Of a stretch of DNA of 64,000 nt, positions 189 through 29,825 are shown piece by piece. This DNA is from Candidatus Omnitrophota bacterium (GTDB lineage: Bacteria; Omnitrophota; Gorgyraeia; Gygaellales; Profunditerraquicolaceae), in NCBI GenBank assembly GCA_041650835.1, contig JBAZKL010000001.1, positions 171,931 through 235,930 on the forward strand, given 5' to 3'. The stretch's first letter is position 1; every line of letters starts with the position of its first letter. A program made the position numbers and the translations under genes. The notes beneath the pieces are model-generated. The model was given only the letters and a program-made list of their open reading frames with translations, made no database searches and was not told where the DNA came from.

Positions 189-2225
189 CTATCTGACCCT
201 CTTTAATAAATCCACGGCTTTCCCGCTCTTGTCAAACCTAAGCACATAGCAGGGAACCTCCCGCGCTATTCTTTCCGCCACAGACAATGTCTTTTCCCAC
301 CAGTCAACAGTAACCAGAGGCTTGACTAAACACTCCAGAATTTTTTTAATTCTTTCTTTCCTGTCTTCCAAAGGTATAAGCCGATTTTCATCCGCTTTCT
401 CCAAGAACATGATCGCTCTTAACGCGGCTGAATTTGGCGATATATCCGGCACATCTCCATGGCTCCAGGTCCCGTAAATCTTAAAACCTTCGGGTTTTCT
501 TCTTATGATCATCCGGTCATCACAGAGTATTTCAGCCTTTCCCTTGAACATGGCAGCCATAGTGGATTTTCCCGCTTCGGAATGGCCGGCAAAAAGCAGG
601 CCTTTACCGTTGAAATTCACCCCGCTGGAATGCAAATAACATCCCTGCCTATCAGCTAAAACGCGCGCGATAAGCATCTGGTCCGAAGGGAACATAGTCA
701 GAGAATGTAAATTCCCCTGTAAGAACAATTCTTCCGTATCATTGTAAATTCTGCCGCGGCTGTGGTCAGCGTTAAATGACGCGACACGATGCAGCCCTTT
801 ATCCTCTGGCGCCGAAGGAATTCCCAAATATATCCACGAACCGTTATTTTTATATATTGCCCAGGGGGGCCTACGGTAAAACTCTTTGCCAAGGTCTTTA
901 TCGGCCAGGTCCGGCAGAAAAAAGTGCTGCCAAATAGAAATAGTATCTTCTCCCGGGCCATCTACTTCAAAAAGCTTGAATTTAGGGTGGAATGTATTAT
1001 TTTTGATCGGCAGATCAGATTCAACCCGCACGGTAATATCAGCGATTTTAAAGTAACGGCGGTGGAGTTTATGCCATTTTTCCCTGAACTTCCGGTTTTC
1101 TTTGGCAACGGAGCAAAGATATTCAACCTTATGGTTAAAATCCCGGGACTCAAGATACCCATAAACCGGGCAGAAACGGCAATCTTTACGCAGATCGCAA
1201 GAGCCGCAATTCTTCTTATATTCTTCTGTAATCTTAACTTTAGCTGCCAAAGAAGGGATAAATTTATCCCAACAATCCTTAAAACTGCCCTTTATTAAAT
1301 TGTAACGAAGATCAGGGTGCTTGATAAAACTGCAGAAGGTCATTTGCCCATAAGGATCAATGTGAAAATCACGCCTTAAATTTATGCAGGAGCTCAATAA
1401 CCGGCCATTTTCACTTATCATACGGCATTCGGGATCTTCCCCGTTCATCCGGTCATCATAAAACAAATCCGGTTTATCCAACTCAACGACTTTTTCAGGC
1501 GGCAGCCTCTGCCGCGTTATTTCTTTATTCCTTTCGGCATCACCGCAGGCAGACAGAAATAACCAGGCAGCGCCTATTCTATAATACTTACTGACGCGCC
1601 GGGACAACTTAACCATATCCTGAAACTGATGGTAATTATCCTTCATCGGGATTATCTGAACTATAAAACCAGCGCCGGCTTCTTTTAAGTATCGCAACCC
1701 ACGCATAGTCGCCTCAAAAGAGCCCGGGGTACGGGTTATATGATCGTGAATTTGAGCGCTTGCCCCGTAAAGCGCGACCATTTTTACCCCTTTTTTCGCC
1801 AGAAGCTTTGCTATTTTAGGAGTGATCAAAGTACCATTGGTATTTATGGAATAAGAATTGAACCTGCGGGTAAGATAATCAAAGATTTCAGGGAAATCCG
1901 GTCGCAGCAAGGGCTCACCGCCGGAGATAGACCACCTGCGGCAGCCCATTCTCCGCGCTTCATTCACAATTTCCTTAATTTGCGCTACGGCAAGTTCTTC
2001 TTTCTTTTGAGGTGAATTTACGGGGACTCTTAACCAACAATGGCGGCAATTATTATTACAACGGTAGGTAAGATCGATTTTGCCTTCTAAGGGCAAACGG
2101 GTAAACTTGTTTACTTTTATTTCTTGTGAATACTCCTGCGCCATAGTTATAGTTATACGCGGTAACCTAAGAAAATCCAATTCAAAAGCAGCCCAAGAAC
2201 CAAAGATCAAAAGAACGACCTGCAT
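189..2225 (-). CDS. Radical SAM/SPASM enzyme fused to a C-terminal HprK-like P-loop kinase domain
   Basis: N-terminal CxxxCxxC (CNNNCRHC) in TYRCNNNCRHCW. Mid-protein SPASM pattern CSFIKHPDLRYNLIKGSFKDCW ... CGSCDLRKDCRFC. C-terminal GKGLLFAGHSEAGKSTMAAMF...ILCDDRMIIRR closely matches the HPr kinase/phosphorylase C-terminal P-loop (LhhG.SG.GKS...haDD). The true start may be the internal Met (MAQEY, ~2144). Confidence 0.7.
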   Translation of the reverse strand: MQVVLLIFGSWAAFELDFLRLPRITITMAQEYSQEIKVNKFTRLPLEGKIDLTYRCNNNCRHCWLRVPVNSPQKKEELAVAQIKEIVNEARRMGCRRWSISGGEPLLRPDFPEIFDYLTRRFNSYSINTNGTLITPKIAKLLAKKGVKMVALYGASAQIHDHITRTPGSFEATMRGLRYLKEAGAGFIVQIIPMKDNYHQFQDMVKLSRRVSKYYRIGAAWLFLSACGDAERNKEITRQRLPPEKVVELDKPDLFYDDRMNGEDPECRMISENGRLLSSCINLRRDFHIDPYGQMTFCSFIKHPDLRYNLIKGSFKDCWDKFIPSLAAKVKITEEYKKNCGSCDLRKDCRFCPVYGYLESRDFNHKVEYLCSVAKENRKFREKWHKLHRRYFKIADITVRVESDLPIKNNTFHPKFKLFEVDGPGEDTISIWQHFFLPDLADKDLGKEFYRRPPWAIYKNNGSWIYLGIPSAPEDKGLHRVASFNADHSRGRIYNDTEELFLQGNLHSLTMFPSDQMLIARVLADRQGCYLHSSGVNFNGKGLLFAGHSEAGKSTMAAMFKGKAEILCDDRMIIRRKPEGFKIYGTWSHGDVPDISPNSAALRAIMFLEKADENRLIPLEDRKERIKKILECLVKPLVTVDWWEKTLSVAERIAREVPCYVLRFDKSGKAVDLLKRVR

Positions 2226-2440
2226 CCATCGTGTATTGAACCGGACCCGCCGATGCTGTATCCTTTACGCGGCCCTCTCCCTCCTGAGAACCCTGCTTTG
2301 TAAATTTAGATTGGAACTCGGGTACGAATATTATGGCAGATTGGTTCTATGCTACAATACAAACTGACAAAAGTCAAAATAATTCAGTTGCGCCGACAGT
2401 ATCCCCTCATAATAACCGCGGGCCCGCATGACGAACAGGC

Positions 2441-3760
2441 TCAATGATCCCATTTCCTTGATACCTTGTTCAACAAGTAACAAAACGAGGCCCAATGCGC
2501 CAGGCTGACCAGCGGATCACGCAAGAAAAACTTGAAATAATTATCGCATTCAACTCTCCGGCGCCTTGAAAAATAAATATCATAATAATGCTTAAGCATT
2601 GCTGAAACCGGGGGCAGCTTTCTGGTTTTCTTACCGGACAACAACTTTTCTTTTAAAAAAGCCTCCCCCCGAAGGAACAGGTAGAAAATAAATATACATA
2701 TATCGCGCGCCGGCCATACGAAAACAACCTCCCCCTTATCGGTTGATACCGGCAAAGCTACCGCCTTATTTTCGAAAAGAGACAGCGAGATCAGCGGGCC
2801 GTTCACCCCTTCCCTTACTTCCGACCAGGTCCCTTCGCTGATACGCACATTAACCTCCATCACTTTGTGCATGCCATCCCGCGCGTCAACTTTAAGCTGA
2901 ACATGGCCATAGCCGATAAATTGCTCACTCGCGAACAGCGAAACGATCTTGTTAAAATACGCAGGAAGGTTTTTCTTTATCAGCAGCAATCCAAAGTTTT
3001 GATGGATGGTCATTTCCGGCCTTTGACAAACCGCGCATGAACCCAGGAACAAAGTTCCATCCCGCCTCATGTAAACACGCGCGTACGCAATGGTATCGCC
3101 GGGGATATACTCCTGCACCACGAACTCATGAGCGCGCGCCTTGTTCTTTTGCCTCCAAGCCTCCCAATCCCCTCTGTCCTTAATAAAGCATATCCCCCGC
3201 GAGGCGCTTGCGAAACGCGGTTTGACCACAGCCACCGGGGAGGTGCTTCCCGTTTCCGGAAAACGCAGTTTATCCGCATCTTCAACAAGAAAGGTTTCCG
3301 GGCACCGAAGCCCTTGCTCCCGCGCCAGCCGTATTATGGTAAACTTATCCGCCATGCGTTTCAATACGGGATAATCGTTAACGGGGATGAAAACACCTTG
3401 TTCCTCGAATACTTTTTTGTATTTTGCCAGAATAAACACTTCCTCATCTCCGGAAGGGTATATAAGATTTACGCGCTCGCGCCGGCAAATATTTAAGATA
3501 TCATCTATGTATTCTTTTTCTGCGGCAACACAAGAACTTTCGTTCAAAGTGGTCACGCATCCGGCAGGTGATTTGCCGGTTTTTATTCTATACGTTTTAG
3601 CTATTAATCGCGAGTGTGAGGAAAACGAGAACACCCCGGGAACTATCCCATTCCCCTTGACGGTAACGATGATCCTCTCACACTGGTCAAAGAGCGCGCG
3701 GATAATGTCATATGACTGCGGCGTGCCCGGATCGGTAATTAACAGCCTCCAACGTTTCAT
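2441..3760 (-). CDS. ATP-grasp domain protein (carboxylate-amine/thiol ligase family)
   Basis: Pre-ATP-grasp N-domain (MKRWRLLITDPG...) and ATP-grasp-like central region (AVVKPRFASASRGICFIKDRGDWEAW...EFVVQEYIPGD). 4-nt overlap with the downstream gene. Confidence 0.5.
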   Translation of the reverse strand: MKRWRLLITDPGTPQSYDIIRALFDQCERIIVTVKGNGIVPGVFSFSSHSRLIAKTYRIKTGKSPAGCVTTLNESSCVAAEKEYIDDILNICRRERVNLIYPSGDEEVFILAKYKKVFEEQGVFIPVNDYPVLKRMADKFTIIRLAREQGLRCPETFLVEDADKLRFPETGSTSPVAVVKPRFASASRGICFIKDRGDWEAWRQKNKARAHEFVVQEYIPGDTIAYARVYMRRDGTLFLGSCAVCQRPEMTIHQNFGLLLIKKNLPAYFNKIVSLFASEQFIGYGHVQLKVDARDGMHKVMEVNVRISEGTWSEVREGVNGPLISLSLFENKAVALPVSTDKGEVVFVWPARDICIFIFYLFLRGEAFLKEKLLSGKKTRKLPPVSAMLKHYYDIYFSRRRRVECDNYFKFFLRDPLVSLAHWASFCYLLNKVSRKWDH

Positions 3761-4791
3761 GGCCGCTTTCCTTCTTTCTTCAACGGCTCACCCGGGAGCT
3801 CACAGAGATAAGCAATGATCCCCGGGAGAACCAACACCCAGTACTGCGAAAGCTGAAATTTGGGCAGGCCGACCAAAAAGAATATCAACCACAGGGAAAA
3901 CCACTTGATCACCGCGCCAAGACCTGCCGCCCCCTGCCGGACCTTTTCGAACAGGTAAAACAAAAAGGTGACACACGCGGACAAATAGCACAGCGTTACC
4001 ACGGCCGCCGCCCGCGCGCCCATGACCGGCAAAAGCAGATAATAAACATTCGGACTGCGAAACATCCAGGGGCTATAGAAATGCGCGGCCACCATGGATC
4101 CGCTCACCCTTGGCCCGAACAGAGCCTGCGTAAATTCCCGCGGGCCGGTAATGAAAAACGGCAAGAAGATCAAAACAATTGTCCCGGTAAAACACCAAAA
4201 ACTCTTTTTATCAACGCGCCAGAAATAAACCGAAGAAATCAACGCGAGAGGAAAATAAAACTGTTTTACCGACACAGCGCATGCCAGCGCGACCGCTGCC
4301 GCCGCAGGCAGCTTATAGCGCTCATGCAACAAAAGCGCAAGGATTATCCCGCCGGCGGCAACAATATCGTTGGATGCCGTAAACCCGGAAGTTATTTCCC
4401 GCGTGAACGGATTGAGCAAAAAAACAGCCGCAAGGAACATTCCCCAGCGCTCATCCCTGGCGCAGGCCAGCAGGCCGAACGCGGTGAACAGCGCGAAAAT
4501 AAAATTCAGCCAGCGGATATCCGCCCAACTCGCCAACAGGCTATAGCCCAATGCTCCTGCGGGTGGATAACTGTAATGCAGTGAATAAGCCGAATCGGCG
4601 GTCTTAATGATAAACGGCGACGAATAAGGATTCATCCCCTTGATTATCTTGAGCGACGCCAAGCGGTTTATTTCGTATATGTCGCTGGTATGGCCGATCG
4701 GAAATTGCCGGATATTTGCGTGAGTCAGTCCGGCGAACACTGCCACGAACGCTATTGCGATAAGCCATTTTACTAAAGCCTGCTCTTTCAC
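3757..4791 (-). CDS. Polytopic integral membrane protein (possible GT-C-like glycosyltransferase or polymerase; function unknown)
   Basis: About 10 predicted TM helices across the whole length with no soluble domain. Operonic between the ATP-grasp gene and a hypothetical gene. Confidence 0.35.
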   Translation of the reverse strand: MKEQALVKWLIAIAFVAVFAGLTHANIRQFPIGHTSDIYEINRLASLKIIKGMNPYSSPFIIKTADSAYSLHYSYPPAGALGYSLLASWADIRWLNFIFALFTAFGLLACARDERWGMFLAAVFLLNPFTREITSGFTASNDIVAAGGIILALLLHERYKLPAAAAVALACAVSVKQFYFPLALISSVYFWRVDKKSFWCFTGTIVLIFLPFFITGPREFTQALFGPRVSGSMVAAHFYSPWMFRSPNVYYLLLPVMGARAAAVVTLCYLSACVTFLFYLFEKVRQGAAGLGAVIKWFSLWLIFFLVGLPKFQLSQYWVLVLPGIIAYLCELPGEPLKKEGKRP

Positions 4792-4792
4792 G

Positions 4793-6040
4793 TCACTCCT
4801 TTACCTGGTAAATAAAATAAAACGGCCGATTATAACGGATGAGGGCCGCGCCATTCTCTGTCCTGCTGCGGTTTACCAGTAACGCAACATACATGCGCTG
4901 CGGGAACAGATCATAGGCAGAAAGATCGAACGCTCCCTGGCGGTTCGAGGGGATCCGGGCAAGGACCGGCCGGTCCGGCAGAAGAAAGTCTTTCCCGGCG
5001 GAATATAACTCAAGGGCGGTTTCTTCTCCTTCATCCATTCGCCAATCACGATCCATGACCGATTCGCCTCCGTCATAGGCCAAGGTATGCCCAAGCGGCG
5101 CGCGCGCGGGCGGAACAGGAATATTCACCACCATCTCCCCGCTGCCGTGAGACGCTTCCCAACTGATCCGGACATCCGGGATATTTACCGCCGGGATACT
5201 TTCCAAAAGAAGCGTTCGGGAAAAATTCTGTTCGCGTTCATCCCAATCCAGCGTAAAGGGTTGCGAGAAAAACGCCCCTTGCTTCACGCTCATTTTCTTT
5301 AGCTGCCGCAGCGTCACCGCTTCAAGGCGCAAGAAAACACTTTTGCCCGCCTCCAAAAATACCGCATGAACATCCGGACCGAAAGCATCATATGTCCGGG
5401 GGTGATATTCGAACATCCTGCTGGTCGCGCGGTCGCCGAGATACTTCGAAAACGCGGTGATCCTGAACACGCAGGAAGGGACCTGTTCAGGCACGAGAAA
5501 CCGCGGCCCGCACAGGTACGGGCTGGAATATATTATTTCCCCTTCCCGGTTAAAAAAATCCACCGTGTAGAATAACGCCGTCGCGCCGCCAGGCCATTCC
5601 AATAAACCACCCCGCTGTTCCACTTGTCCCACCGCGGAAACGAACAATCTGCGGGAACGCTCAACTGCCACTTCTTTCTTAAAAACAACCCCGTCCTCAA
5701 AGCAGACCTCCACATACAAATGCCGGGGCAGCGAATCATACGCGAGGCTCCCCTGAAACAGCGTTGTCCGCGGGATGTAACCGGAGCGCTCGCCGGTAAG
5801 CGGACCTATAACCTGTCCGGCTTCGTTCTTCAGCACTGCCCGCGTAATGCCGAGCTTATACGCCGGCTTCACCAGTACCACGAGGCGCTTGCCGGCATCA
5901 GCAAATACATGCAGCGCAGGCTTAACCAATATGATCCTTGGAGAAGGATCAAAAAAATACAAACGGATCCCTATAAAAAAAATGAAAAGGAATATAGCTG
6001 TATATTTAAGCGCAGGCTTCATTTTAATCATGCCGAGCAA
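4793..6040 (-). CDS. Membrane-anchored hypothetical protein (single N-terminal TM, large extracytoplasmic domain)
   Basis: N-terminal hydrophobic helix (AIFLFIFFIGIRLYFF), no recognisable motifs, tightly packed in the operon. Confidence 0.4.
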   Translation of the reverse strand: MLGMIKMKPALKYTAIFLFIFFIGIRLYFFDPSPRIILVKPALHVFADAGKRLVVLVKPAYKLGITRAVLKNEAGQVIGPLTGERSGYIPRTTLFQGSLAYDSLPRHLYVEVCFEDGVVFKKEVAVERSRRLFVSAVGQVEQRGGLLEWPGGATALFYTVDFFNREGEIIYSSPYLCGPRFLVPEQVPSCVFRITAFSKYLGDRATSRMFEYHPRTYDAFGPDVHAVFLEAGKSVFLRLEAVTLRQLKKMSVKQGAFFSQPFTLDWDEREQNFSRTLLLESIPAVNIPDVRISWEASHGSGEMVVNIPVPPARAPLGHTLAYDGGESVMDRDWRMDEGEETALELYSAGKDFLLPDRPVLARIPSNRQGAFDLSAYDLFPQRMYVALLVNRSRTENGAALIRYNRPFYFIYQVKE

Positions 6041-7470
6041 GCCGTCCTATAAACAAATTTTAATTTCTCACCGAGAGGAAAACGCGATATTCTCAAGGCC
6101 AAAACATATATTACGCCGGCAACGGACATCTTCAGCAAAAAATAGCCCATCGTTACCGGAAAGACCGCATTCATCCCGAGCAGGCACAGGACCATGACGG
6201 TCGAAGCGGCAATCACCGGCCATACATTCCGCAGATATATCTTTGCGGACACGCCGATCAGGCGGTTGGTTGCCGTAATGATCACCGGAAAATAGATCAG
6301 CTCCGCGAGCGTGACCGCCGCGGCTATACCGGCAATGCCGTAACGCCGGCCGATGAGAATTGCGCTGCAACTGACCAGGCAATAAAAGACCCCCCAGCGC
6401 CAGGTAAGGTCCGGCCTTCCCTTGGCATAAAAGATCGCCCTGATTATACCTCTGCGCAGCGTTTGCAGCAAGCCGTTCACGCAGAGTATCCGCAGCGCGT
6501 CTGCCGCGTTAAGCCATTTCCCGCCGAACAAGAACAAGATAACGTCTGTTGCGTTGACACAAACCGCCAGATGCAAGGGAACGCTCAATAAAGCCATGCC
6601 CTGGATGACTTTTAAATAAAACTCACCGAACAACGCGTTTTCATCGCGCATCCTGCTCAACGCCGGAAATAATACCCGGTAAAACACCGGCGCGGCCTGG
6701 TAGTAAAAATAATTGGAAACCGAATAGGCAAAATAATAGTAACCCATCGCCGCAACACCCAGGAATTTACTGATGATCAGAAAATCAAGATTAGCGCCGA
6801 TATAATTAAGGATCTCCGCGCCGAAAACATTTTTCCCGAAGCGGAGCATTTCTTTCAGCCTCCCGGCTTCAAAGCCAAGGGCCGGTTTCCACTCACTCGC
6901 CCGCCAGCTTAATAAACAGAGTACCGCGCTCTTGAGTACCAGCGCCCACACCAGGCTCCAAACGTTGCGAGTAAGAAACGCGATGCCCCCCCCGGCTACT
7001 CCATAGACGATCACCCCTGCCACCTGGGGGATCACGAGCCGTTTATAAGCCAGCTTTCTGCTTATGACCGCTTCGAAAATAGAGGTCAACGAATCGAAAA
7101 CAAAAGTGACGGAAAGCACCCTTAAGATCGCAGTCAACGGAGGATTGTGGAAGAAGCCCGCGATAAACGGGGCAACGATCACGGTGATCAAAGCCGCTAC
7201 CGTCGCGCTCGCCAGGTAAGAAGAAAAAGCGGTAACAAGATGCCGCTCATCCGTATCATCATTCTGAACCAGCGCTTCCGGTAAACCGAATCCCTGCAGC
7301 AGGACCTGGATACATTTAATATAGATATACGCGGTCGTGATCGTCCCGAAATGCTCCGGCAGCAATAACCGGGCAAGGATAATTGCCGAGACAAACTGTA
7401 TCACCTGGGAAATGATTTGCCCCAGGCTTACCCAGGTGAATCCCTGGGCGACTTTTTGCCGCATATTCAC
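6028..7470 (-). CDS. wzx: Wzx-type oligosaccharide flippase (MOP/polysaccharide biosynthesis protein family)
   Basis: 480 aa, ~12-14 TM helices. N-terminus MNMRQKVAQGFTWVSLGQIISQVIQFVSAIILARLL is typical of Wzx/RfbX. Confidence 0.75.
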   Translation of the reverse strand: MNMRQKVAQGFTWVSLGQIISQVIQFVSAIILARLLLPEHFGTITTAYIYIKCIQVLLQGFGLPEALVQNDDTDERHLVTAFSSYLASATVAALITVIVAPFIAGFFHNPPLTAILRVLSVTFVFDSLTSIFEAVISRKLAYKRLVIPQVAGVIVYGVAGGGIAFLTRNVWSLVWALVLKSAVLCLLSWRASEWKPALGFEAGRLKEMLRFGKNVFGAEILNYIGANLDFLIISKFLGVAAMGYYYFAYSVSNYFYYQAAPVFYRVLFPALSRMRDENALFGEFYLKVIQGMALLSVPLHLAVCVNATDVILFLFGGKWLNAADALRILCVNGLLQTLRRGIIRAIFYAKGRPDLTWRWGVFYCLVSCSAILIGRRYGIAGIAAAVTLAELIYFPVIITATNRLIGVSAKIYLRNVWPVIAASTVMVLCLLGMNAVFPVTMGYFLLKMSVAGVIYVLALRISRFPLGEKLKFVYRTACSA

Positions 7471-7519
7471 GATCGATCACCCCGCACGGTTTTAGCTTCA
7501 ACCAAAATTCATAGTATCC

Positions 7520-8506
7520 CTAATCCAGCAATCGAAGCAAAGAAACACACGACGCACAAATCTTTTCATCGCAGCGGCCCTGCCGCCGGAAACCAGTCCC
7601 CGGGAAACTCCCCGCGTCAAGATCATCCTTATGAACATCGCCTGCCGGCGGAAAATTACGGCAGCGATAGGCTTCGCCGTCCGCGTTCACAAATAACGAA
7701 CGCGCAGGAACAAAGCAACGGCCATCCACGCGCCCCGTTTCCAGGTAACGGATCAATCTTTGCGTCACCAAGCCGTTCCCCAGGGGATTGCGCCTGACGC
7801 TGCGCAGCGCTTGCCGTATCGCGCGCTTCTGCTCAGGGCTGAAAACAAAAGTACCGTTCTTTGAATTTTCTTCAAAATGCAGTGCATTGGTATATGACTT
7901 ATTATTTTCAACTATTTTAAAAACAAAACGCATACGCTTTTGCCGGAAATAGGCGGCAGCGCGTTCAATATCATCGTAGTTCCAGGGAGTAATGACAAAC
8001 TTCGCCTGTAAACCGGCCCAAGGGAATTTTTGTTGTATCAGAGCGATCGAATGTTGCGTTTGTCGCAACGCGCCCGGGGTCCGCGTCAAGCGGTCATGCG
8101 ATTGCAGCCCGTGAATGCTTAATTCCAGGACCAGACGCCGGTCGATCTTTATCCCCGTTAAAAAGTCACCTATCTCGCCGGTAAGCGTGCCGTTTGAAGA
8201 TATGAGCAGCGTCGATTTAGGAAACAATGACCGGGCATGAGAATAGAGCGAGCTCAGGTCCTTTCGCAAAAAAGGCTCGCCGCCGGTAAAGGTGATGTGT
8301 CGCGTTTTTTCGAGTGAGGGATGCTTGAGTACCCGCGTAACGGCATCACTTGATAGCTCATCACTACATTCGCCGTTTCTTTCCCATATATCGCACATGC
8401 GGCACTTCAAATTACACGCAGTGGTCAACGCAAGAGTAACCGAGGTAATTTCCAACCGGCCAAGATATGCGAGCAGGCAATTTTTAATCCGTTTCAATGT
8501 CTCCAT
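7520..8506 (-). CDS. Radical SAM protein with C-terminal SPASM/twitch-like Cys cluster
   Basis: CNLKCRMC near the N-terminus, GGEPFLRKD glycine-rich SAM motif, C-terminal CFVPARSLFVNADGEAYRC...CDEKICASC. Confidence 0.75.
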   Translation of the reverse strand: METLKRIKNCLLAYLGRLEITSVTLALTTACNLKCRMCDIWERNGECSDELSSDAVTRVLKHPSLEKTRHITFTGGEPFLRKDLSSLYSHARSLFPKSTLLISSNGTLTGEIGDFLTGIKIDRRLVLELSIHGLQSHDRLTRTPGALRQTQHSIALIQQKFPWAGLQAKFVITPWNYDDIERAAAYFRQKRMRFVFKIVENNKSYTNALHFEENSKNGTFVFSPEQKRAIRQALRSVRRNPLGNGLVTQRLIRYLETGRVDGRCFVPARSLFVNADGEAYRCRNFPPAGDVHKDDLDAGSFPGTGFRRQGRCDEKICASCVSLLRLLD

Positions 8507-8518
8507 ATTTTACGTCTT

Positions 8519-9577
8519 TCAACAGTCCGCGCGGGCACCGCAAAACCAGCTCCGTGGATTGCAGGCCTTCCTCATAACCCTTTGAAATACCGCTTCGTCT
8601 TGATAGTCGAAATATATCCGGGAAGCTATCCCGCTAAAAGCAAGCTCCGCGGCGCGCATCAACTTCCAGTACTTGCCTCCCTCAAAACAGTTATTGCGCA
8701 CGATCGCGCGGATATTCTCGTGCTTTTCCACGAACCGGCAGAATGCCCCCGTTTCAGCCGCCGTTTCCCGGCAGACGATAAAGATCAATTCCGTGATCTT
8801 ATCTTTTGGCCCCAGAAGCATCGTGATATTACGCATCACCCGTTCAAAATTATCCGCCCCCGTAACGGCACGATATGTTTGCCGGCTCATCCCGTAGAGA
8901 GAAACGGTAACGCCAATACCGCTTGAGATCCGGCCGAAGGTATCTAATAATATCCCGTTAGTAAGAATATGCAGCCTTTTCTCCGGGTAATGAGCGATCA
9001 CCCATTCAATGAATTCCCGCGTAACCGGCGCAAAAAGCGGTTCCCCTCCGGAAACAATGATATCCCGGGCCGCGGGTACCAGATCCTCCTTTATCTCTTT
9101 CATCAGCTCCTCGGATAACTGAGCGCATTGGCGGCGCCGGCGCATCCCGGACTGATAGCAAAAAGAACAATTATTGTTACAGGTAAAAGAAGGAACAACC
9201 ACGAGCATCGGCGGCGCGTAGTCAAGCTGAACCACTTTGTTCTTAAGAGCGTGCTTAACCGGATCATGGGCGGTGAAAGGGAAAAACGGGTCACGGCAAC
9301 AGTTCGCCCCGCGGCAAAAATCCCACGAACCACGGGAGATCATTGTCCTCTGAAACCGGAACTGCTTTGCATTCCAGGCTTCCCTGACCCCTTTTTTAAC
9401 GACCACCCGGTTCCCCGGGATAAACACATTGCTGAAACACGTGCTCAGTTGGGCTGCGCCCTGCTCCGCGGGAGAGATCTCTAACCGGTAATAGCCGCGG
9501 TGGCAGCGATACGGCTTTGTTTCGCCGGTATTTCCCCGAAAGATTGTCCGCGACACCAGTTGGAAATCCTTTATCAT
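8519..9577 (-). CDS. Radical SAM protein with ~125-aa Cys-rich N-terminal domain (paralog A)
   Basis: CNNNCSFC at ~aa 133, GGEP motif (VSGGEPLFAP). N-domain has C..YY...SP...STC...WNA..F..QR...G.W..C..G.C..PFF, which is conserved in the adjacent paralog. Confidence 0.7.
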   Translation of the reverse strand: MIKDFQLVSRTIFRGNTGETKPYRCHRGYYRLEISPAEQGAAQLSTCFSNVFIPGNRVVVKKGVREAWNAKQFRFQRTMISRGSWDFCRGANCCRDPFFPFTAHDPVKHALKNKVVQLDYAPPMLVVVPSFTCNNNCSFCYQSGMRRRRQCAQLSEELMKEIKEDLVPAARDIIVSGGEPLFAPVTREFIEWVIAHYPEKRLHILTNGILLDTFGRISSGIGVTVSLYGMSRQTYRAVTGADNFERVMRNITMLLGPKDKITELIFIVCRETAAETGAFCRFVEKHENIRAIVRNNCFEGGKYWKLMRAAELAFSGIASRIYFDYQDEAVFQRVMRKACNPRSWFCGARADC

Positions 9578-10695
9578 TCTGATCGGCCCTTTTGGGTAAC
9601 CTTAAGCGTTGGGTAAAAATACCGCGTGGTATAATACGGATCATACAACTTCTGTAACAACTTATCAGAAAAGGTTTCCCGGCAGTAACTGAATTTCAAA
9701 CGGGATGAAATACGGGCAAAGCGTGTTTCAAGTGAGCGCATCAAACCTTTGAATTTATTGCCGTCGGCGGAATTATTCCTTACGACGCCTTTCAAACGCC
9801 CCTCCGATTCGATGAATTGGCAAAATTGCATCGCCTCTGCCGCCGTAGTTCTCGAAACGATGAACGTCAAGTTTAAATTCTCACAGCCACAGGCAAGAAG
9901 TTGCGTAATAGCCCCCCAGGCGGCGTCAAAATAACCGGTCCCCGTTGTGTTCTTATATGTCTGCCGGCACATCCCGTAGAGAGAGATCACCGGGAATATA
10001 TTCGGACGGAGGACCTTCTCAATGCCAAATGCCTGCAAAAGCGTACCATTGGTAAGTATGGTGAGCTTTTTTTCCGGGAAATCCGTTATCATCCAGCGGA
10101 TAAGCTTCTGCGCGCACGCGGAGAAAAAAGGCTCGCCTCCGGAAACAACTATTTCCTGCGCTGACGGAACGACTTCTTCCCTCAGTTCTTTGAGGATGCC
10201 TTCGGAGAGCTGATAACAGCTGCCTCTATGGCCTTCTTTCCCATTATAGCAGAAAAAACAATTATTATTGCAAGCCAGAGACGGGATAATGTAAACTTTT
10301 TTGGCAAAATAACCCAGCTTTGTTCCACCGGTAAGGATGGCCTTGCCCACATCGGGATTATCGCCGATAAATTCTTTTTCCTGGAAAAAAGGATTAAAAA
10401 AACAATCTCCCGCTTTCCAGCAATAACTCCAATCGCCCTTACGCGTCAATGCCCTCTGGACCTGAAATTCCCGGGCGTTCCACGACGCGCAGATCCCGGC
10501 AGATACGATCCTGCGGTTCTTCGTCAGAAAAGCATTCTTGCAGCAGGTCGAAACCATCACCCGCCGCTCATCAACGGGAGACACCCACAGCGTATAATAG
10601 CAGGAATAACAATGCTTCAAATTCCCCATATCATTACTTAAACTCCCCATGCGATCAATAACAGTATTGTTATGATCATTCTTTCCCGTAAACAC
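9574..10695 (-). CDS. Radical SAM protein with Cys-rich N-terminal domain (paralog B, tandem duplicate)
   Basis: CNNNCFFC, VSGGEPFFSA. Colinear similarity to 8519..9577 throughout (ILTNG.LL..FG, SLYGM.RQTY, VRNN). 4-nt overlap with paralog A. Confidence 0.7.
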   Translation of the reverse strand: MFTGKNDHNNTVIDRMGSLSNDMGNLKHCYSCYYTLWVSPVDERRVMVSTCCKNAFLTKNRRIVSAGICASWNAREFQVQRALTRKGDWSYCWKAGDCFFNPFFQEKEFIGDNPDVGKAILTGGTKLGYFAKKVYIIPSLACNNNCFFCYNGKEGHRGSCYQLSEGILKELREEVVPSAQEIVVSGGEPFFSACAQKLIRWMITDFPEKKLTILTNGTLLQAFGIEKVLRPNIFPVISLYGMCRQTYKNTTGTGYFDAAWGAITQLLACGCENLNLTFIVSRTTAAEAMQFCQFIESEGRLKGVVRNNSADGNKFKGLMRSLETRFARISSRLKFSYCRETFSDKLLQKLYDPYYTTRYFYPTLKVTQKGRSE

Positions 10696-12112
10696 ATGCC
10701 GTTGAATATCCCTGTTTGAATCCTTTAAGCGGTTTCCAGCCGTATTTATCGATATATCGCTTCAGGTCCCGGGAATTATCCGACTGAGGCGAATAAACGA
10801 TTATATCCAGATCGTCATTATTGACCCGAAACCACGCATTCACCGCGTCAAGTGAGGGCTTATCAAAGAGTTCCCGCACGATAAGCGGCTTTTTCACATA
10901 CCCCAGTTCCGGATAACGTAAGGCCGAGGTTAACGGCCAGGACGCCGCGATGATCGCGCGCGGATAATTCCGCTCGACAAACCGCGCTGCCGCGGCGTGG
11001 ACATTCACGCAAGCTACATAGGACATATTCCGTTCCAGGCGGGCACCGCTGCCGAATGGTTCTTGCTCTTTCAACGGGAAAAAGCAAGATACCAGCAGGA
11101 AAACGACCGCGCCGGCCGCCAGCACGCGTCCGCCGTGCCGGGGAACGCCTTCTATGAGCATGACCGAGGCGGTAATAGCCAAGAAGGGATACAGCGGCAG
11201 CCAGTAACGGGGTATATTGATCTCGTATATGCTATAGAATAAGAACGATCCCGCGAGAAACGTCGCGCTCAGCAGGAGAAAACGAAGAGGATTGTCCTCC
11301 AACGGCTTTCGCGGCGAACGGATGGACCTCATGAGCAAAAAAACCATCGTTACCTGCGCCAACGGGCTGTCCGCAATGAACATTCCAGCCGTACGCGTCA
11401 ATACCCGCAGGTCCATTCCTGAAAGCGGGCGGACATGCCCGATATAGAACTCCCAAACCGCCTGCGTTATCCATAACGGCTTCAGGCAAACAAGCAAAAC
11501 GATGATCACCATGGTAAAGGAAAAAAAGATCCCATAGTATCTTTTACGCTGCTGCCGGTCGATCATCGCTAAGAGCGCCAATGCCAGGGCTATCATAACA
11601 GCGCCCAACACTCCGTTCTCCTTTGAAGCGGCTGCGGCTGTCAATGCGGCGATAAAAAGCCCCTTATTGCCGCTCATGAGCGCGTAAACCGTCAAAACCA
11701 TAAACAACGTCACGAGCATTTCGGGCAGCACCAGAACGCTTTGCGCGTAAAACAAAGGAGCGCACGCGAGTAATACCAGCGCGTAGACAGCGGTGTCCCT
11801 GGTAAAAAGAAGTGCCGCGAGTTTGTAGGTATAGAACAACGTTGCCGCCGCGCAGAGCATACTGAACAAATGGAAAAACGATATTGACATACCGAATATA
11901 CCGGCAATGCTTTTGAGTATAAAATGAAAAAGTGTTTTTCTTTCCGGAAAAGACTGCGCGGCAGCACCGACATAGGCAAGCTCATCCCAGTGCGGCAAAA
12001 CGTTTAATACAGGAACCTTGCTCAGAATGAATATCCCCAGGATATAGAATACCCCGGACGGATAAGTATCGCCGCCATTTTTGTCTTTGCTGGAATTATT
12101 CCGCGAACCCAT
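10676..12112 (-). CDS. GT-C fold membrane glycosyltransferase (GT39/GT83, PMT/ArnT-like)
   Basis: Polytopic N-terminal half with a first-loop DE motif (PHWDELAYV) and a C-terminal soluble domain. Start re-set to ATG at 12110..12112 (MGSRNN...), because the track ORF (to 12454) overlaps the upstream gene that stops at 12114. Confidence 0.6.
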   Translation of the reverse strand: MGSRNNSSKDKNGGDTYPSGVFYILGIFILSKVPVLNVLPHWDELAYVGAAAQSFPERKTLFHFILKSIAGIFGMSISFFHLFSMLCAAATLFYTYKLAALLFTRDTAVYALVLLACAPLFYAQSVLVLPEMLVTLFMVLTVYALMSGNKGLFIAALTAAAASKENGVLGAVMIALALALLAMIDRQQRKRYYGIFFSFTMVIIVLLVCLKPLWITQAVWEFYIGHVRPLSGMDLRVLTRTAGMFIADSPLAQVTMVFLLMRSIRSPRKPLEDNPLRFLLLSATFLAGSFLFYSIYEINIPRYWLPLYPFLAITASVMLIEGVPRHGGRVLAAGAVVFLLVSCFFPLKEQEPFGSGARLERNMSYVACVNVHAAAARFVERNYPRAIIAASWPLTSALRYPELGYVKKPLIVRELFDKPSLDAVNAWFRVNNDDLDIIVYSPQSDNSRDLKRYIDKYGWKPLKGFKQGYSTACVYGKE

Positions 12113-12113
12113 A

Positions 12114-13400
12114 TTATTTTGTAAAATAGATCCTTTTTGACTGCGCAACGGCGACAATATTGCCTTTGCCGGCCGCGGTCCGGTTAAACGCCCAGATCTC
12201 CGCGCATAATCTTTCCCCTGCTGCCCCGACTCCGTCAAGCTCCATCCTGGAACTGAGGGTTGAACGCCTGGCTGCCAGAAAAAGCAGCCCCCTGCTGTTT
12301 TCACGATAAACGTCAACTCTGTATTCTGAAGCTCCGGATACCGGCTGCCATACCACGCGTTGCTCCTGTCCGTCATACCTGATCCCCTGCGCAGGCAAAA
12401 TATCATGCCTTGCCCCGATGAAAACCCTTTCTTCCTGAACACGTAAAGAAGCATCCCGTATCGTCAGCGTATACTCACCCGGCGACAGCGCCTGCATGAG
12501 CTGCACCCTGAATACCGAAAGCATCGTATTAAAGGCTGCCTCCCAACGCCTGCCCCGCGCGTCCTTTATAAAAACCGACCTGACCGAGCCCGGATTATTT
12601 ATCGCCGCGTCAAAAAACATTGTTTTTTTAGTGCCTTCAAGAAAGTCGCAGCTGGTTACCGGTTTGATACGCCACGAAAATATATCCGCCTCCCCCCCCG
12701 TGAACGTAAAAGAATATTCTCCCGACAGGGCGGAATTTGCCGCGAGATAATATTCGCTTTTTTCCCGCGACTGCGTCAACATCGTATCAAAGCCTCTGAG
12801 CCTTACAAAATATTTTTGCCCTTCTTTAAACCTGCGTTGATCAAGGAACAAGACGCACTCGTCAGACTCTCTCACCGGACAGTACATCTGCCGGTATACC
12901 GGCCTTCCGCGGTAGTCATAGAATTGCAGGGAGTAACTCACCACACTTTCATCATTCTTCCAAAGAATATATCCATTCCTGAAATCAAGGCGCTCCGGTA
13001 AAACAATGCTGCGATACTGCCAATAGATACTTTCCCGCTGTACTTCGCCGTTTCGGTACTTAAGGGCCAATTCATATTTCCCGGGGCCCATCGGGAGCCC
13101 CGGAGTTCCCCGGGAACGATACCTGTTTTTAAACCCGGGAACCGAAGTAAAATCGCCTGCCGTAAGTTTTACCGGCGCGCTTACTGAAGGAGGGACCAAA
13201 ACGATCGAGGTTATTTCCGGAAGTTTTCTCACCGAAGAAAAAATAACATGAACAGAGCTCTTACCGTTGTTTTGTTCCGAAAGAAGAGAGAAATCCAGCC
13301 GATGATGCGTCCCGGCGGGACTCCCCGACAAAAACGCCCATGCAGCGCTGGTGAACAGCGCGGCGGACAGAAAACCATACGCCAAAACATTCCTTTTCAT
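12114..13400 (-). CDS. Secreted hypothetical protein (signal peptide)
   Basis: N-terminal MKRNVLAYGFLSAALFTSAAWAF signal peptide, no recognisable catalytic motifs, stop abuts the start of the GT-C gene. Confidence 0.5.
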   Translation of the reverse strand: MKRNVLAYGFLSAALFTSAAWAFLSGSPAGTHHRLDFSLLSEQNNGKSSVHVIFSSVRKLPEITSIVLVPPSVSAPVKLTAGDFTSVPGFKNRYRSRGTPGLPMGPGKYELALKYRNGEVQRESIYWQYRSIVLPERLDFRNGYILWKNDESVVSYSLQFYDYRGRPVYRQMYCPVRESDECVLFLDQRRFKEGQKYFVRLRGFDTMLTQSREKSEYYLAANSALSGEYSFTFTGGEADIFSWRIKPVTSCDFLEGTKKTMFFDAAINNPGSVRSVFIKDARGRRWEAAFNTMLSVFRVQLMQALSPGEYTLTIRDASLRVQEERVFIGARHDILPAQGIRYDGQEQRVVWQPVSGASEYRVDVYRENSRGLLFLAARRSTLSSRMELDGVGAAGERLCAEIWAFNRTAAGKGNIVAVAQSKRIYFTK

Positions 13401-13412
13401 CGCCGGATATAC

Positions 13413-14336
13413 TCAGCTATAATTCGCATACGTGCTTGCGCGCCGCAGTTTGTGCAAAACAAACCCGCACAATAAGCCTGACCGATACCAAAACGCGATC
13501 GCGATTAAAAATCCCGCGGCTAAAAAACGCCGGACCCCTTCTGCCTTTACCCGCTTGAGGACCGCCACCCACCAACAACGTGTTCCATTCCGGGAACCTT
13601 TGACCTTTCCGTTCTTAATGACCGAGTAAGCCTTGCCTAACCCCTGAAGCCACGACCCGTAGAGGTACGCGGACACGCTTCTTTTCGAAGGGACGTGCTC
13701 TGTGGAAAGTTCAGCCAGGAAATACAGCTTCCCGCCGCGTTGAAGGATCCGGTCATTCAACTCCGTCTCCGCGCTGCCATACCGGATAGTTTCATCAAAA
13801 CAACCGCAGTTTTGTAATGTTTCTTTCCTGTACGCGCTCCCGCCGCCGAGAAGGGCGATTGTCCGGTTATCTTGGGTGATATTTTGCTCAAGATAAAAAT
13901 TATCCAATTCATTGCGGCATACCGCGTACAAATCATCGTTATTCTTTCGCAGATACCCGCCGCCGACAGCCATCGCGTCTTTAAACCGTTGGAAAGCGGC
14001 ATAGGCCCGTACCAGCCAAAGATCGTCCGGCAACAGGCAATCATCATCCAGGAAACACAGTATTTTACCCTTTGCCGTCCCTATCCCCGCGTTGCGCGCG
14101 GCATTGGCTCCCGGAGACAAAGCGATAATATGTTGAACGAAAAGGCTTTCTTCCTTTTTTCGGGTGAGCCATTCTTTTGTTTCTGTATCCCGCTGGTCCA
14201 CGGCAATGATAATTTCATGCTCCACGGTTTCACTTACAGCCTGTTGCCGCAAAACAGACCCCAAACATTGCCTAAGCGCAGCCAGCCTGTTGCAGGTAGG
14301 TATAATGATCGATATGGAGGCTCGCGGACCGTTCAT
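13413..14336 (-). CDS. Family 2 glycosyltransferase
   Basis: ISIIIPTCNRLAALRQCLGSVLRQ N-terminal GT-A motif and DDD (FLDDDCLLP). Confidence 0.8.
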   Translation of the reverse strand: MNGPRASISIIIPTCNRLAALRQCLGSVLRQQAVSETVEHEIIIAVDQRDTETKEWLTRKKEESLFVQHIIALSPGANAARNAGIGTAKGKILCFLDDDCLLPDDLWLVRAYAAFQRFKDAMAVGGGYLRKNNDDLYAVCRNELDNFYLEQNITQDNRTIALLGGGSAYRKETLQNCGCFDETIRYGSAETELNDRILQRGGKLYFLAELSTEHVPSKRSVSAYLYGSWLQGLGKAYSVIKNGKVKGSRNGTRCWWVAVLKRVKAEGVRRFLAAGFLIAIAFWYRSGLLCGFVLHKLRRASTYANYS

Positions 14337-14366
14337 AAGGTTGATATTCCTGAAATCTTTTCCACA

Positions 14367-15437
14367 CTACAATTTATTGCTGTTCTTCCGGAAAAAAGGG
14401 TCATCGGCGAATCTGTCCCCCGTCGTATTAAACGCAACCGCGCGGCAGCCGTAAAAATGGCTATGCTTACCCTGCGCTCCGTTATATATATAGCCCCGGA
14501 TCTTTCTCACCTTTGCCGAAGACATAATTTCACTGAGGCTACGGCGCCGGGCATCGCCAAGGGTTTCCGCGAGATAGCCGCACATCTGGACTTTCCCGTC
14601 GCTGCCGACACAACAGCCGGTCTTAACAACCGAACACCCGAGCGCGGCGATCGGATAGGTATGCTCAGGGTCCCAGGAAAACCCGAATTCCTCGTCGATA
14701 AACCGCAGACGGATAAAAAGATCACGCAGTTTTTCAGGAGAAACCCTCAAGCCGTTAAAATATCTCTCGTTTTGATTCCGCGGCGGGACAAGTACTTGGA
14801 AATAGGGAATGATATTTCTGCGCCGGAACTCACCCCACATCTGCGGGATTTCAGCGTAATTACTCCGGCAGATCACCGTGTGGATAGACAGCCGGGACGG
14901 CTTTTTGGTAAAACCCGCTTGTTCAAGACAGCGCAGCCCCCGCAAGATTTTCCCTGAAGATCCTTTTACGCCGGTAAGCGAATCCTGAATACGCGGATCA
15001 AAACTGTTTAATTTACAGACGATCGTCACGTCAAGGCCATAGAGCACCTCAGCGGCGCGCTCATCGATCAGCGTATTATTGGTAAACACAACCACATTCA
15101 ACCCCAGGGAATTGGCATCCCGGATAAGCGCATAAATATCTTTGCCGGTCCGGTCATCCCTGTACATAAAGGGCTCTCCTTCCCCGATGATCGACAGGGA
15201 ACGAAGCCCCATTTCCGCGGCTTGAGACATAATCCGCGCAAAGCGCCCATACCCCAGCGCGCTACGGCTCCTTTGGCTGTAACAATACCGGCACTTCAAA
15301 TTACAGCCTACCGGTAATTTCAGGCTTAAACTTAAAAGCCGGTTCTTATCAATAGCTTCGCTGATCTGGCGCGCGGAAAAACTGCGGCTCAGCCGCGGCG
15401 GAGCATGCAATCTCTTTTTGTTACGCTCAGCACACAT
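14367..15437 (-). CDS. Radical SAM/SPASM domain protein
   Basis: CNLKCRYCY, IIGEGEPFMY, C-terminal SPASM (CCVGSDGKVQMCGYL...LGDARRRSLSEIM...C). Confidence 0.8.
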   Translation of the reverse strand: MCAERNKKRLHAPPRLSRSFSARQISEAIDKNRLLSLSLKLPVGCNLKCRYCYSQRSRSALGYGRFARIMSQAAEMGLRSLSIIGEGEPFMYRDDRTGKDIYALIRDANSLGLNVVVFTNNTLIDERAAEVLYGLDVTIVCKLNSFDPRIQDSLTGVKGSSGKILRGLRCLEQAGFTKKPSRLSIHTVICRSNYAEIPQMWGEFRRRNIIPYFQVLVPPRNQNERYFNGLRVSPEKLRDLFIRLRFIDEEFGFSWDPEHTYPIAALGCSVVKTGCCVGSDGKVQMCGYLAETLGDARRRSLSEIMSSAKVRKIRGYIYNGAQGKHSHFYGCRAVAFNTTGDRFADDPFFRKNSNKL

Positions 15438-17076
15438 ACGTATCCCTATTCAACGGCACTTCAAGGACATTTGTTACTTGCGCGGACAAAGCCTTACGCA
15501 AGGCCTTTCGAAATTCATCTTCGCCGGATACCCGGCACCCCACAGCGCCATTGGCCTGTGCCAAGCGCACAAAATCAACCTTCCCAAAATCAGTGATCGC
15601 AGGATTATGTCCCCCTAATCCCTTTTTTTGATAATGGCGGATAAGCCCGACTGAATTGTCGCAAAAAACGACACAAACCACCGGCAGCTTGTTTCGCACG
15701 CTTGTTTCCAATTCCGGGCTGCTCAAATGAAATCCCGCGTCCCCGCACACCGCGACGACGTTTCTTTCCGGACAAGCCCTTTTCGCCCCAAGAGCTGCCG
15801 GCAGGCCAAAACCCATGCTTCCCAAACCGTTCGAACAAAAGAAAGACTTCGGCTTTTTTGCTTCATAGTAAAGCGACACGTATTGTTTGTGTAAACCGAC
15901 ATCGGATATCAGGATATCCTGCGCTGAAAGTTCCTCATTAAGGACATTGACGATCGCAAATGGCGTAAGGCCGGAACGCTTCCCAAAAGTATCTTCCCGG
16001 TATTCCAACAGCTCTTTTTTAAGTTTTGCTGTTATTTTCAGGTCCCGCGGGGCCTCCCAGGATTTTCCGGTCAACCTCTCAGAGAACGTGCGATACGCCA
16101 TGCTGATATGCGCGTCCACGGGAATAAAGGCAAAGCTATCTTCCACGATCGAATTGATCGCGCACACTTTTTTCTCGCGGCCGAAGCGCCATAATTCCGG
16201 GGTTATCCCTTCAACCATATCGAAACCCGCAAGCAGGATACAATCGGTATCTTCGAATATTTTCTTTAATGTCCCGGGGATAAAACAATCCAGATACTTA
16301 CTGACGGTCCCCAGATAATACGGTGATTCTGGGGGGATCACTCCTTTTCCGCCATAAGTGGTAACAACCGGTATCCGCAAACGCCGCAACAGCTTTTGCA
16401 GCTGCGTTACTTCTGCCGCGCTCCTCACCGCGCTGCCTACGATACAGATCGGATCTTTGCTTTGCCTGATCAGCGTCAACAGATCCTTAATACCGGAAAA
16501 GCCGGCGGGGCGGGTATATACGCGGCTGTCTTTTCCTGCTAGAGCGATACCACCATCAGGCAACGGCCGGAACCCGGTTTTTGCCCTGAAAATATCCAGG
16601 GGAATACTTAAAAAACACGGGCCCGGGATCCCCGATTCAGCGATCGTCGCGGCCCTGAGAATTTCAAGCTGCAGCTCGGAAACAGAGCTTACTTCTTTAG
16701 CGTATTTCGTGATCGGACGCATCAAAGCAACCTGATCCACATACTGATGCGTGGAGGGATGGATCGACAACGATTCCACCTGAGCGGAAATTGCCAGCAT
16801 CGGGGCACGGTCTAAATACGCCGATGCGATACCGGTTGCCAAATTAGTTGCTCCCGGTCCGAACGTCGAATAACAGACTCCGATTTTACCGGTCAACCTT
16901 CCTTGTATATCAGCCATGAATGCCGCCGAGCGCTCATCGCGCGTGAGCATGAACTCCACGCCTTTAACCTCGTTAAACGCGATGGCCTCGGCTTCCCTGC
17001 CCACAATACCGAAGATATGCTTTGTTCCGCGGCTTTTGAGCGTCCGCAATAAGATGTGCGCGCCGGTAAGCATCAT
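15427..17076 (-). CDS. Thiamine-pyrophosphate enzyme, acetolactate-synthase-large-subunit-like (possible YerE-like sugar-branching enzyme)
   Basis: N-terminal TPP-Pyr domain GVCYSTFGPGATNLATGIASAYLDRAPMLAI, central and C-terminal TPP-binding domains (GLGSMGFGLPAALGA), 549 aa. Confidence 0.8.
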   Translation of the reverse strand: MMLTGAHILLRTLKSRGTKHIFGIVGREAEAIAFNEVKGVEFMLTRDERSAAFMADIQGRLTGKIGVCYSTFGPGATNLATGIASAYLDRAPMLAISAQVESLSIHPSTHQYVDQVALMRPITKYAKEVSSVSELQLEILRAATIAESGIPGPCFLSIPLDIFRAKTGFRPLPDGGIALAGKDSRVYTRPAGFSGIKDLLTLIRQSKDPICIVGSAVRSAAEVTQLQKLLRRLRIPVVTTYGGKGVIPPESPYYLGTVSKYLDCFIPGTLKKIFEDTDCILLAGFDMVEGITPELWRFGREKKVCAINSIVEDSFAFIPVDAHISMAYRTFSERLTGKSWEAPRDLKITAKLKKELLEYREDTFGKRSGLTPFAIVNVLNEELSAQDILISDVGLHKQYVSLYYEAKKPKSFFCSNGLGSMGFGLPAALGAKRACPERNVVAVCGDAGFHLSSPELETSVRNKLPVVCVVFCDNSVGLIRHYQKKGLGGHNPAITDFGKVDFVRLAQANGAVGCRVSGEDEFRKALRKALSAQVTNVLEVPLNRDTYVC

Positions 17077-17082
17077 ATACAG

Positions 17083-19243: not shown

Positions 19244-19248
19244 CTCTT

Positions 19249-20727: not shown

Positions 20728-20749
20728 CCATTTACTTTTTTCGAATACG

Positions 20750-27635: not shown

Positions 27636-27636
27636 A

Positions 27637-29821: not shown

Positions 29822-29825
29822 GGCG

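Follow-up and report, generated by a model that had tools for sequence, protein, structure and literature searches.

Our analysis of a 64,000-nucleotide stretch of the genome of a Candidatus Omnitrophota bacterium (assembly GCA_041650835.1, contig JBAZKL010000001.1, positions 171,931 to 235,930, hereafter the window) showed that two adjacent genes, A and B, encode paralogous radical S-adenosylmethionine (SAM) enzymes. The Cys-rich domain that precedes the catalytic core in both proteins is, to judge from profile-profile comparison, very probably a highly divergent twitch-type auxiliary Fe-S domain that has been relocated to the N-terminus, and not a new fold. On balance, we favour the view that A and B are long-diverged paralogs of an N-terminal twitch (N-twitch) radical SAM family that carries out sugar tailoring in the biosynthesis of a decorated glycan, rather than acting on a ribosomal peptide. 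The architecture itself, an N-terminal twitch domain followed by the radical SAM core, is already catalogued as the NCBIfam model NF033640, of which the A/B family would be a distant and unannotated branch; the architecture as a whole is uncharacterised.

A and B lie on the same strand (Table 1) and share the tetranucleotide ATGA at positions 9577-9574, which combines the ATG of A with the TGA of B in a 4-nt overlap. A pairwise BLASTP comparison aligned 325 colinear residues with 40% identity (E=1e-86), a similarity far beyond chance, and the two are true tandem paralogs, as the initial annotation of this DNA had stated. The GTG start of B runs 20 nt into the upstream PMT_2 gene, and P0012, a 77%-identical orthologue of B, begins at a Met that matches M23 of B; for these two reasons, the true start of B is probably the ATG at 10629. 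Proteins of the A clade carry an additional Cys-rich tail at their C-terminus (positions 8519-8560 on the reverse strand), ending in WFCGARADC in A and in WFCSACADC or ARADC in its orthologues, and this tail is absent from B and from the rest of the family.

Membership of both proteins in the radical SAM superfamily is clear. The only Pfam matches of A and B are PF04055 (Radical_SAM) and PF13353 (Fer4_12), from about residue 128 on, and the PF04055 scores of 57.3 bits for A and 40.7 bits for B exceed the gathering threshold of 29.5. The CNNNCxFC motif indeed follows the N-terminal domain in both proteins, as first noted, and an alignment of 33 family members shows both it and SGGEP to be invariant or nearly so (conserved in at least 27 of the 33). 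Both paralogs retain the CX3CX2C and GGE motifs together with all four Cys of the N-terminal domain, and a further Cys in the core, C280, is conserved in 29 of the 33. The best match to the core of A among PDB sequences, though a weak one (E=0.01), is BtrN (PDB 4M7T), the 2-deoxy-scyllo-inosamine dehydrogenase of the butirosin pathway. A Foldseek search with the full-length AlphaFold2 (AF2) model returned generic radical SAM cores only (SkfB, SuiB, MoaA, BlsE, viperin and anSME).

The N-terminal domain (N-domain) comprises about 100 residues upstream of the radical SAM motif, and is laid out as a Cys, a β-hairpin, a second Cys, a helix of the form W-N-x3-F-x2-Q-R and a closing C-x4-C. Its four Cys, spaced C-x21-C-x40-C-x4/5-C, are as invariant as the CX3CX2C triad among the 33 family members, as are P36, W68, N69, F73 and R77 (A numbering), while position 76 is Gln in 32 of the 33. 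The conserved skeleton given in the initial annotation thus named the right residues, but slipped slightly in their spacing, with C-x2-YY written where the sequences have C-x3-YY. Its statement that the domain fits no annotated model was borne out: Pfam returned nothing for four N-domains even at E<=10, leaving the SPASM model PF13186 unmatched, and an NCBIfam scan with the N-domain alone had no match in the first ~125 amino acids. The PDB gave only noise when searched by sequence with the N-domain alone (MWFE, RNase A) and no match below E=1 when searched with Foldseek.

Since four-Cys sites can bind Zn, the N-domain might instead be a Zn-binding or a structural or substrate-binding Cys4 module, in which case A and B would be single-cluster enzymes. 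The lack of any structural match of the N-domain to twitch domains in Foldseek would fit this explanation, as would the fact that HMMER alone gives no link between the N-domain and SPASM at database scale. We nevertheless consider it improbable, because a profile-profile match to twitch/SPASM domains stands well above shuffle controls with all Cys in register, because NF033640 bridges the A/B family to the N-terminal twitch architecture, and because the W-N-x3-F-x2-(Q)R helix of the N-domain mirrors the W-H-N-D-K-F-x2-F-R of BtrN.

The profile-profile match relies on a bridging profile made of 45 C-terminal regions cut from homologues of a radical SAM/SPASM protein encoded near members of the family in related loci, most of them annotated as PF13186, and on a second version with 37 sequences. 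The N-domain aligned by hhalign to the 45-sequence profile with a probability of 91.9% (E=6.8e-7, score 38.2 over 70 columns) and to the 37-sequence profile with a probability of 92.4% (E=5.2e-7). The maximum score of 100 column-shuffled N-domain alignments was 17.5, compared to the 38-40 observed, and the reversed alignment scored 11.4. When the bridging profile was compared to the PDB, the BtrN twitch domain was the best match (E=5.8e-13), followed by the SPASM/twitch regions of CteB, anSME, SkfB, SuiB and PqqE. Significance was reached only with the deep profiles of 37-45 sequences; hhalign gave weak results (P=0.0006-0.0035) with a four-sequence SPASM alignment, with the BtrN twitch domain as a single sequence and with a single N-twitch sequence from Paracoccus, and the direct match to the BtrN twitch (P=0.0035) covered the helix only. 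Run over all open reading frames (ORFs) of the loci examined, a hidden Markov model (HMM) of the N-domain found the family members and, weakly, the C-terminal SPASM region of this radical SAM/SPASM neighbour. The four Cys were all in register, and the match was obtained in two independent genome sets, at 11 bits in the related loci L002-L004 and 14 bits in the Omnitrophota metagenome-assembled genome (MAG) nzgw296 (L007). Relatives of A and B also score against NF033640 (P0038 33 bits, P0030 31, P0032 21 and P0036 19), with the divergent members P0038 and P0036 matching it colinearly from residue ~4-10.

The initial annotation had suggested that the N-domain could be an extra metal- or substrate-binding module. 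The hhalign results argue that the metal-binding part of this idea was right, in the shape of a twitch/SPASM-type Fe-S domain, although the domain would not be a new fold. By homology, and as in BtrN, the four Cys would ligate a fully Cys-coordinated auxiliary [4Fe-4S] cluster, and each enzyme would bind two [4Fe-4S] clusters in all. An AF2 model of A calculated on a 16-sequence alignment (predicted local distance difference test score 76.6, predicted template-modelling score 0.79) places a hairpin (31-36/42-45) between C25 and C47, with helices at 64-67 and 71-81 ahead of C88 and C93. The N-domain is predicted with more confidence as part of the full-length protein than in isolation, which suggests that it packs on the radical SAM core. 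The twitch domain amounts to half of a SPASM domain. Twitch and SPASM domains have been defined as C-terminal extensions of this core (PMC9012708); the domain of A and B, at residues ~22-100 and thus ahead of the motif at 133-140, departs from that definition.

The gene context points to a role for A and B in glycan biosynthesis. Their operon was rightly described at the outset as rich in glycosyltransferases and adjacent to a GT-C enzyme: it has three glycosyltransferase family 2 (GT2) genes and two PMT_2/GT-C genes, one of which abuts B. The co-occurrence of the N-domain in other genomes, proposed as a check, gave a consistent picture, with the same glycan gene set around distant members of the family. 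Around proteins that are only 35-43% identical, this set consists of two GT2 genes, a PMT_2 gene, a DegT aminotransferase, a PylC-like ATP-grasp protein and SPASM- or twitch-type radical SAM enzymes, often accompanied by an NMT1-type ATP-binding cassette (ABC) importer, a Peptidase_U32 protein, a B12-radical SAM enzyme, Alginate_exp and CapK. The context is glycan biosynthesis in every locus examined. Neither the window cluster nor the related clusters, including L001-L004, contain a short-chain dehydrogenase/reductase (SDR) or an NAD-dependent sugar dehydratase, dehydrogenase or epimerase.

Peptide-maturase systems typically include tandem radical SAM paralogs, and HxsC is the best NCBIfam match of both A and B, at 51 bits. 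The pair could thus be a maturase couple for a ribosomally synthesised and post-translationally modified peptide (RiPP), acting on a small precursor like HxsB/HxsC or ScmE/ScmF, and this was the analogy drawn when the genes were first annotated. The scores of 23-51 bits are, however, far under the cut-offs of 268-400 and are confined to the generic core: HxsB (TIGR03978) scores 25 bits against 370, HxsC (TIGR03977) 51 against 268 and ScmE (TIGR04250) 27 and 24 against 400, while ScmF (TIGR04251) is not among the listed matches. In addition, Pfam detects neither a RiPP recognition element (RRE) nor a C-terminal SPASM domain in A or B, and there is no plausible precursor peptide in the only two intergenic gaps (215 and 155 bp) of the tightly packed window cluster. 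The analogy is further undercut by the single family copy in L002-L004 and by the glycan genes around every member examined, and we consider a peptide-maturing couple very unlikely.

It is just as hard to see A and B as protein maturases of the anSME/AslB type whose role would be to activate a protein of the cluster, either the sulfatase-fold enzyme or another one. The Joint Genome Institute (JGI) name of P0002, P0003 and P0014 is 'sulfatase maturation enzyme AslB', and both the window and two related contigs have a Sulfatase-family gene. A nevertheless scores only 27 bits against a cut-off of 349 with the anSME model (TIGR03942), and anSME enzymes carry two auxiliary clusters in a SPASM domain at the C-terminus, compared to the single N-terminal four-Cys site of A and B. 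The presumed client also lacks the required Arg, since its formylglycine motif C/S-x-P-x-R is replaced by SSVPSF; it is for this reason probably a periplasmic transferase or hydrolase and not a classical sulfatase. Moreover, no sulfatase gene appears within the 17-20 kb shown of L001-L004, all of which contain the family. The probability of a maturase of this kind is accordingly very low.

The family is very rare and apparently restricted to the Omnitrophota, from which nearly all named source genomes come. When the N-domain profile was searched exhaustively with HMMER against 1.84 billion cluster representatives (clusters at 50% identity), only 20 proteins were found; in all 20 the match begins near the N-terminus of the protein, and those of full length are radical SAM proteins of ~300-350 amino acids. 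Word-indexed searches of 5.8 billion proteins yielded about eight homologues per paralog, and a scan of 185,579 species genomes, for which a nine-sequence subset of the family served as the query, located the family at five loci, of which four belong to Omnitrophota MAGs and the fifth to a MAG labelled Planctomycetales. The number of N-twitch copies varies from one in each of L002-L004, through two in the window and in the P0002 contig and three in L001, to at least four in MAG nzgw296. The N-domain HMM matches only A and B in the window. In a neighbour-joining tree, A and B fall in different deep branches, and the tandem pair of L001 comes from clades other than those of A and B, so that the family as a whole does not divide into conserved A and B clades. 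These two observations argue for an old duplication in a dynamic family.

Tandem pairs recur in the P0002 contig and L006 (both with a 4-nt overlap) and in the P0014 contig (1-nt overlap). Together with the translational coupling suggested by the ATGA overlap, this recurrence would suit an obligate heterodimer in which A or B is catalytic and the other serves as a scaffold or electron relay. We give this arrangement little credence, because neither paralog has lost any catalytic or cluster motif, because single-copy clusters exist and other clusters have three or four copies, because pairs in other lineages are assembled from different clades, and because the genes of some pairs lie 7-37 nt apart. 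Most likely, the paralogs, of which sister clusters have one to four copies, act on different positions, on different sugars or in successive steps, and not as an obligate pair.

If A and B are indeed sugar-tailoring enzymes, the reaction would begin with the cleavage of SAM by the reduced radical SAM cluster, to give a 5'-deoxyadenosyl radical that would take a hydrogen atom from a C-H bond of a nucleotide- or polyprenyl-linked sugar, or of a group appended to it. The auxiliary cluster would then accept an electron from the substrate radical. One possible outcome is a two-electron oxidation to a keto-sugar, following the logic of BtrN, which would feed the DegT aminotransferase of the cluster; in another, the substrate radical would be quenched from the opposite face, resulting in epimerisation. 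The presence of DegT, whose gene is the immediate upstream neighbour of the N-twitch pair in three clusters, and the absence of an SDR lead us to favour keto-sugar-forming dehydrogenation as the single most likely reaction, although this is a tentative choice and the remaining reactions taken together are the better bet. Epimerisation, for which C280 could be the hydrogen donor, ranks next, and dehydration, decarboxylation or action on an appended side group are further candidates. A caveat to this choice comes from L002-L004, where the DegT gene overlaps another radical SAM/SPASM gene with a BtrN-like C-terminal domain, and it may be the product of this gene that is the dehydrogenase.

The substrate may also be something other than a sugar ring. 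A PylC-like ATP-grasp gene is present in every cluster examined, and every cluster except those of the window and the P0002 contig has an NMT1-type ABC importer, with CapK_C in two of the importer-bearing clusters. Such importer and ligase genes suggest that a small molecule is imported and then ligated onto the glycan. A and B could then act on an amino-acid or acyl side group delivered by the PylC-like ATP-grasp protein or by a CapK-type ligase, or else on the lipid carrier, for example as mutases or in C-C bond formation or desaturation. We think this unlikely, although nothing specific speaks against it and the data fit it no worse than action on the sugar ring. The known twitch enzymes of glycoside pathways, BtrN (PMC9012708) and BlsE, act on the ring itself.

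A bolder extension of the sugar-tailoring reading is that the N-twitch enzymes form a distinct, circularly permuted class of anaerobic sugar-tailoring enzymes that replaces the NAD-dependent SDR dehydratases, dehydrogenases and epimerases in the Omnitrophota. We hold this to be rather doubtful. If true, the five radical SAM enzymes of a cluster with no SDR would make the glycan by a largely radical pathway, in which each N-twitch paralog installs a different modification. The tandem arrays may even record the origin of the permutation, in which two adjacent core-twitch genes would have fused across their shared boundary.

The cluster that surrounds A and B is summarised in Table 1. Its order, read 3' to 5' on the coding strand, begins with a 678-amino-acid radical SAM/SPASM-like protein and continues with the PylC-like ATP-grasp protein, two unknown proteins, a Wzx flippase and a radical SAM enzyme with a C-terminal twitch-like motif, followed by A and B. 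Beyond B come the PMT_2/GT-C gene, one unknown protein, a GT2, the radical SAM/SPASM enzyme, a thiamine pyrophosphate (TPP) enzyme, a second GT2, DegT, the sulfatase-fold protein, the third GT2 and the second PMT_2. The C-terminal ~300 residues of the 678-amino-acid protein have no Pfam match. The radical SAM enzyme next to A was considered as a further paralog of the pair, and was rejected on the basis of only 24% identity over 106 amino acids and the absence of the N-domain; its core is the best match in the window to the core of NF033640 (58.6 bits). The TPP enzyme could serve to form a two-carbon branch on a keto-sugar. Elsewhere in the window, a tripartite efflux operon lies beside the glycan cluster, with a TetR regulator, OEP, HlyD, two ABC ATPases and two ABC-2 permeases, and a 2929-amino-acid ORF combines GT2-like, glucoamylase-like and GH94 supersandwich and catalytic domains, the architecture of a cyclic beta-1,2-glucan synthase (Cgs/NdvB-like).

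Table 1. Coordinates in the window of the A/B gene pair, its domains and motifs, and surrounding genes.
Feature	Position	Strand	Details
ORF A, radical SAM enzyme with N-terminal twitch-like domain	8519..9577	-	352 aa; 100% identical to P0001, annotated 'radical SAM protein'
A: N-terminal twitch-like domain, aa 22-124	9206..9514	-	C25 (9503-9505), C47 (9437-9439), C88 (9314-9316), C93 (9299-9301)
A: CX3CX2C radical SAM cluster motif CNNNCSFC	9158..9181	-	aa 133-140
A: radical SAM partial TIM-barrel core, aa 125-340	8558..9205	-	SGGEP at 176-180, TNG at 206-208; PF04055 at 128-255
ORF B, paralogous radical SAM enzyme	9574..10695	-	373 aa if read from GTG 10695; ATG 10629, the probable start, gives 351 aa; identical to a protein of a Candidatus Omnitrophota MAG
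B: N-terminal twitch-like domain, aa 26-133 (GTG numbering)	10297..10620	-	invariant C29, C51, C92, C98
B: CX3CX2C motif CNNNCFFC	10249..10272	-	aa 142-149
Whole co-directional glycan-biosynthesis cluster	189..23616	-	5 radical SAM genes, 3 GT2, 2 PMT_2, Wzx, DegT, TPP enzyme, PylC-like ATP-grasp, sulfatase-fold protein
678-aa radical SAM protein	189-2225	-	first ~380 aa resemble AhbD/NirJ/mycofactocin-type SPASM enzymes
Wzx-type polysaccharide flippase (Polysacc_synt_3)	6028..7470	-	
Third radical SAM enzyme, 328 aa	7520..8506	-	C-terminal twitch-like motif C-hairpin-C...C-x4-C-x2-C; orthologue of L003 12773-13756 (39% identity)
PMT_2/GT-C glycosyltransferase immediately upstream of B	10676..12454	-	
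Radical SAM/SPASM enzyme	14367..15437	-	
Acetolactate-synthase-like TPP enzyme	15427-17076	-	11-nt overlap with radical SAM/SPASM gene
DegT/DnrJ/EryC1 sugar aminotransferase	17993..19243	-	in every related cluster
Sulfatase-fold protein	19249-20727	-	N-terminal transmembrane helix
Tripartite efflux operon	23704-30446	-	
2929-aa ORF	47526-56315	-	

The family described here is tiny, its kind is already catalogued and its function is deduced from context, which limits what can be drawn from it. It does indicate that an auxiliary-cluster module can function at the opposite end of the protein and diverge past the reach of Pfam and NCBIfam, and multi-cluster radical SAM enzymes are for that reason probably under-counted. 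The Omnitrophota are an uncultured, anaerobic phylum of ultra-small cells. Their conserved glycan pathway combines five radical SAM enzymes with an aminotransferase and has no NAD-dependent sugar oxidoreductase, which makes it tractable ground for finding new radical carbohydrate chemistry.

Among known systems, the closest in kind is NF033640 (N_Twi_rSAM), an NCBIfam subfamily model of uncharacterised function with the same architecture as A and B, a twitch-type Cys domain of ~100 amino acids followed by the core. A and B themselves fall far short of its 170-bit cut-off: the model is not among the 25 best matches of either protein, which places A below 23.9 bits and B below 16.3 bits, and their N-terminal halves alone give no match to it. 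The A/B family is a separate and very small clade (20 clusters at 50% identity). Our literature search found no paper on an N-terminal twitch/SPASM domain or on NF033640, and we encountered the N-terminal version only as this database model. A second N-terminal example, found by tblastn with A, is encoded by plasmid pPZ01 of Paracoccus zhejiangensis (WP_101754483.1, 510 amino acids, L010 5488-7020). Its twitch domain, at residues ~148-215 with ~145 residues ahead of it, is likewise N-terminal to the core, and it matches NF033640 over profile positions 2-312 with 61 bits, below the cut-off, with positions 2-130 covering the N-terminal Cys domain. This N-twitch enzyme is unrelated to the A/B family, and its gene, too, is flanked by GT25 and glycosyltransferase genes.

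The SPASM maturases (anSME/AslB, PqqE, SuiB and CteB), as well as HxsB/HxsC and ScmE/ScmF, share with A and B a homologous auxiliary-cluster domain and a related core. All of these, however, place a seven-Cys SPASM domain that holds two clusters behind the core, often have an RRE as well, and act on peptides or proteins, whereas A and B have a single four-Cys site at the N-terminus. MoaA, the GTP 3',8-cyclase, is a twitch-type enzyme and provides the second-best NCBIfam match to the core of A and B (44-50 bits against cut-offs of 231-325). Its twitch domain is C-terminal, and its auxiliary cluster has three Cys ligands and an open Fe site that binds the substrate (PMC9012708), in contrast to the four invariant Cys of the N-terminal domain of A and B.

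In cluster chemistry, the closest characterised analogue of A and B is BtrN. Like them, it combines a radical SAM core with one four-Cys auxiliary site, and the likeness extends to the order of motifs, C-hairpin-C, a W-x-N-x2-F-x2-F/Q-R helix and C-x2-5-C, although its twitch domain is C-terminal where theirs is N-terminal. BtrN acts on a carbohydrate-type substrate in a pathway that includes an aminotransferase, and in characterised twitch/SPASM enzymes, BtrN among them, an auxiliary cluster with four Cys and a low potential accompanies two-electron oxidation (PMC9012708).

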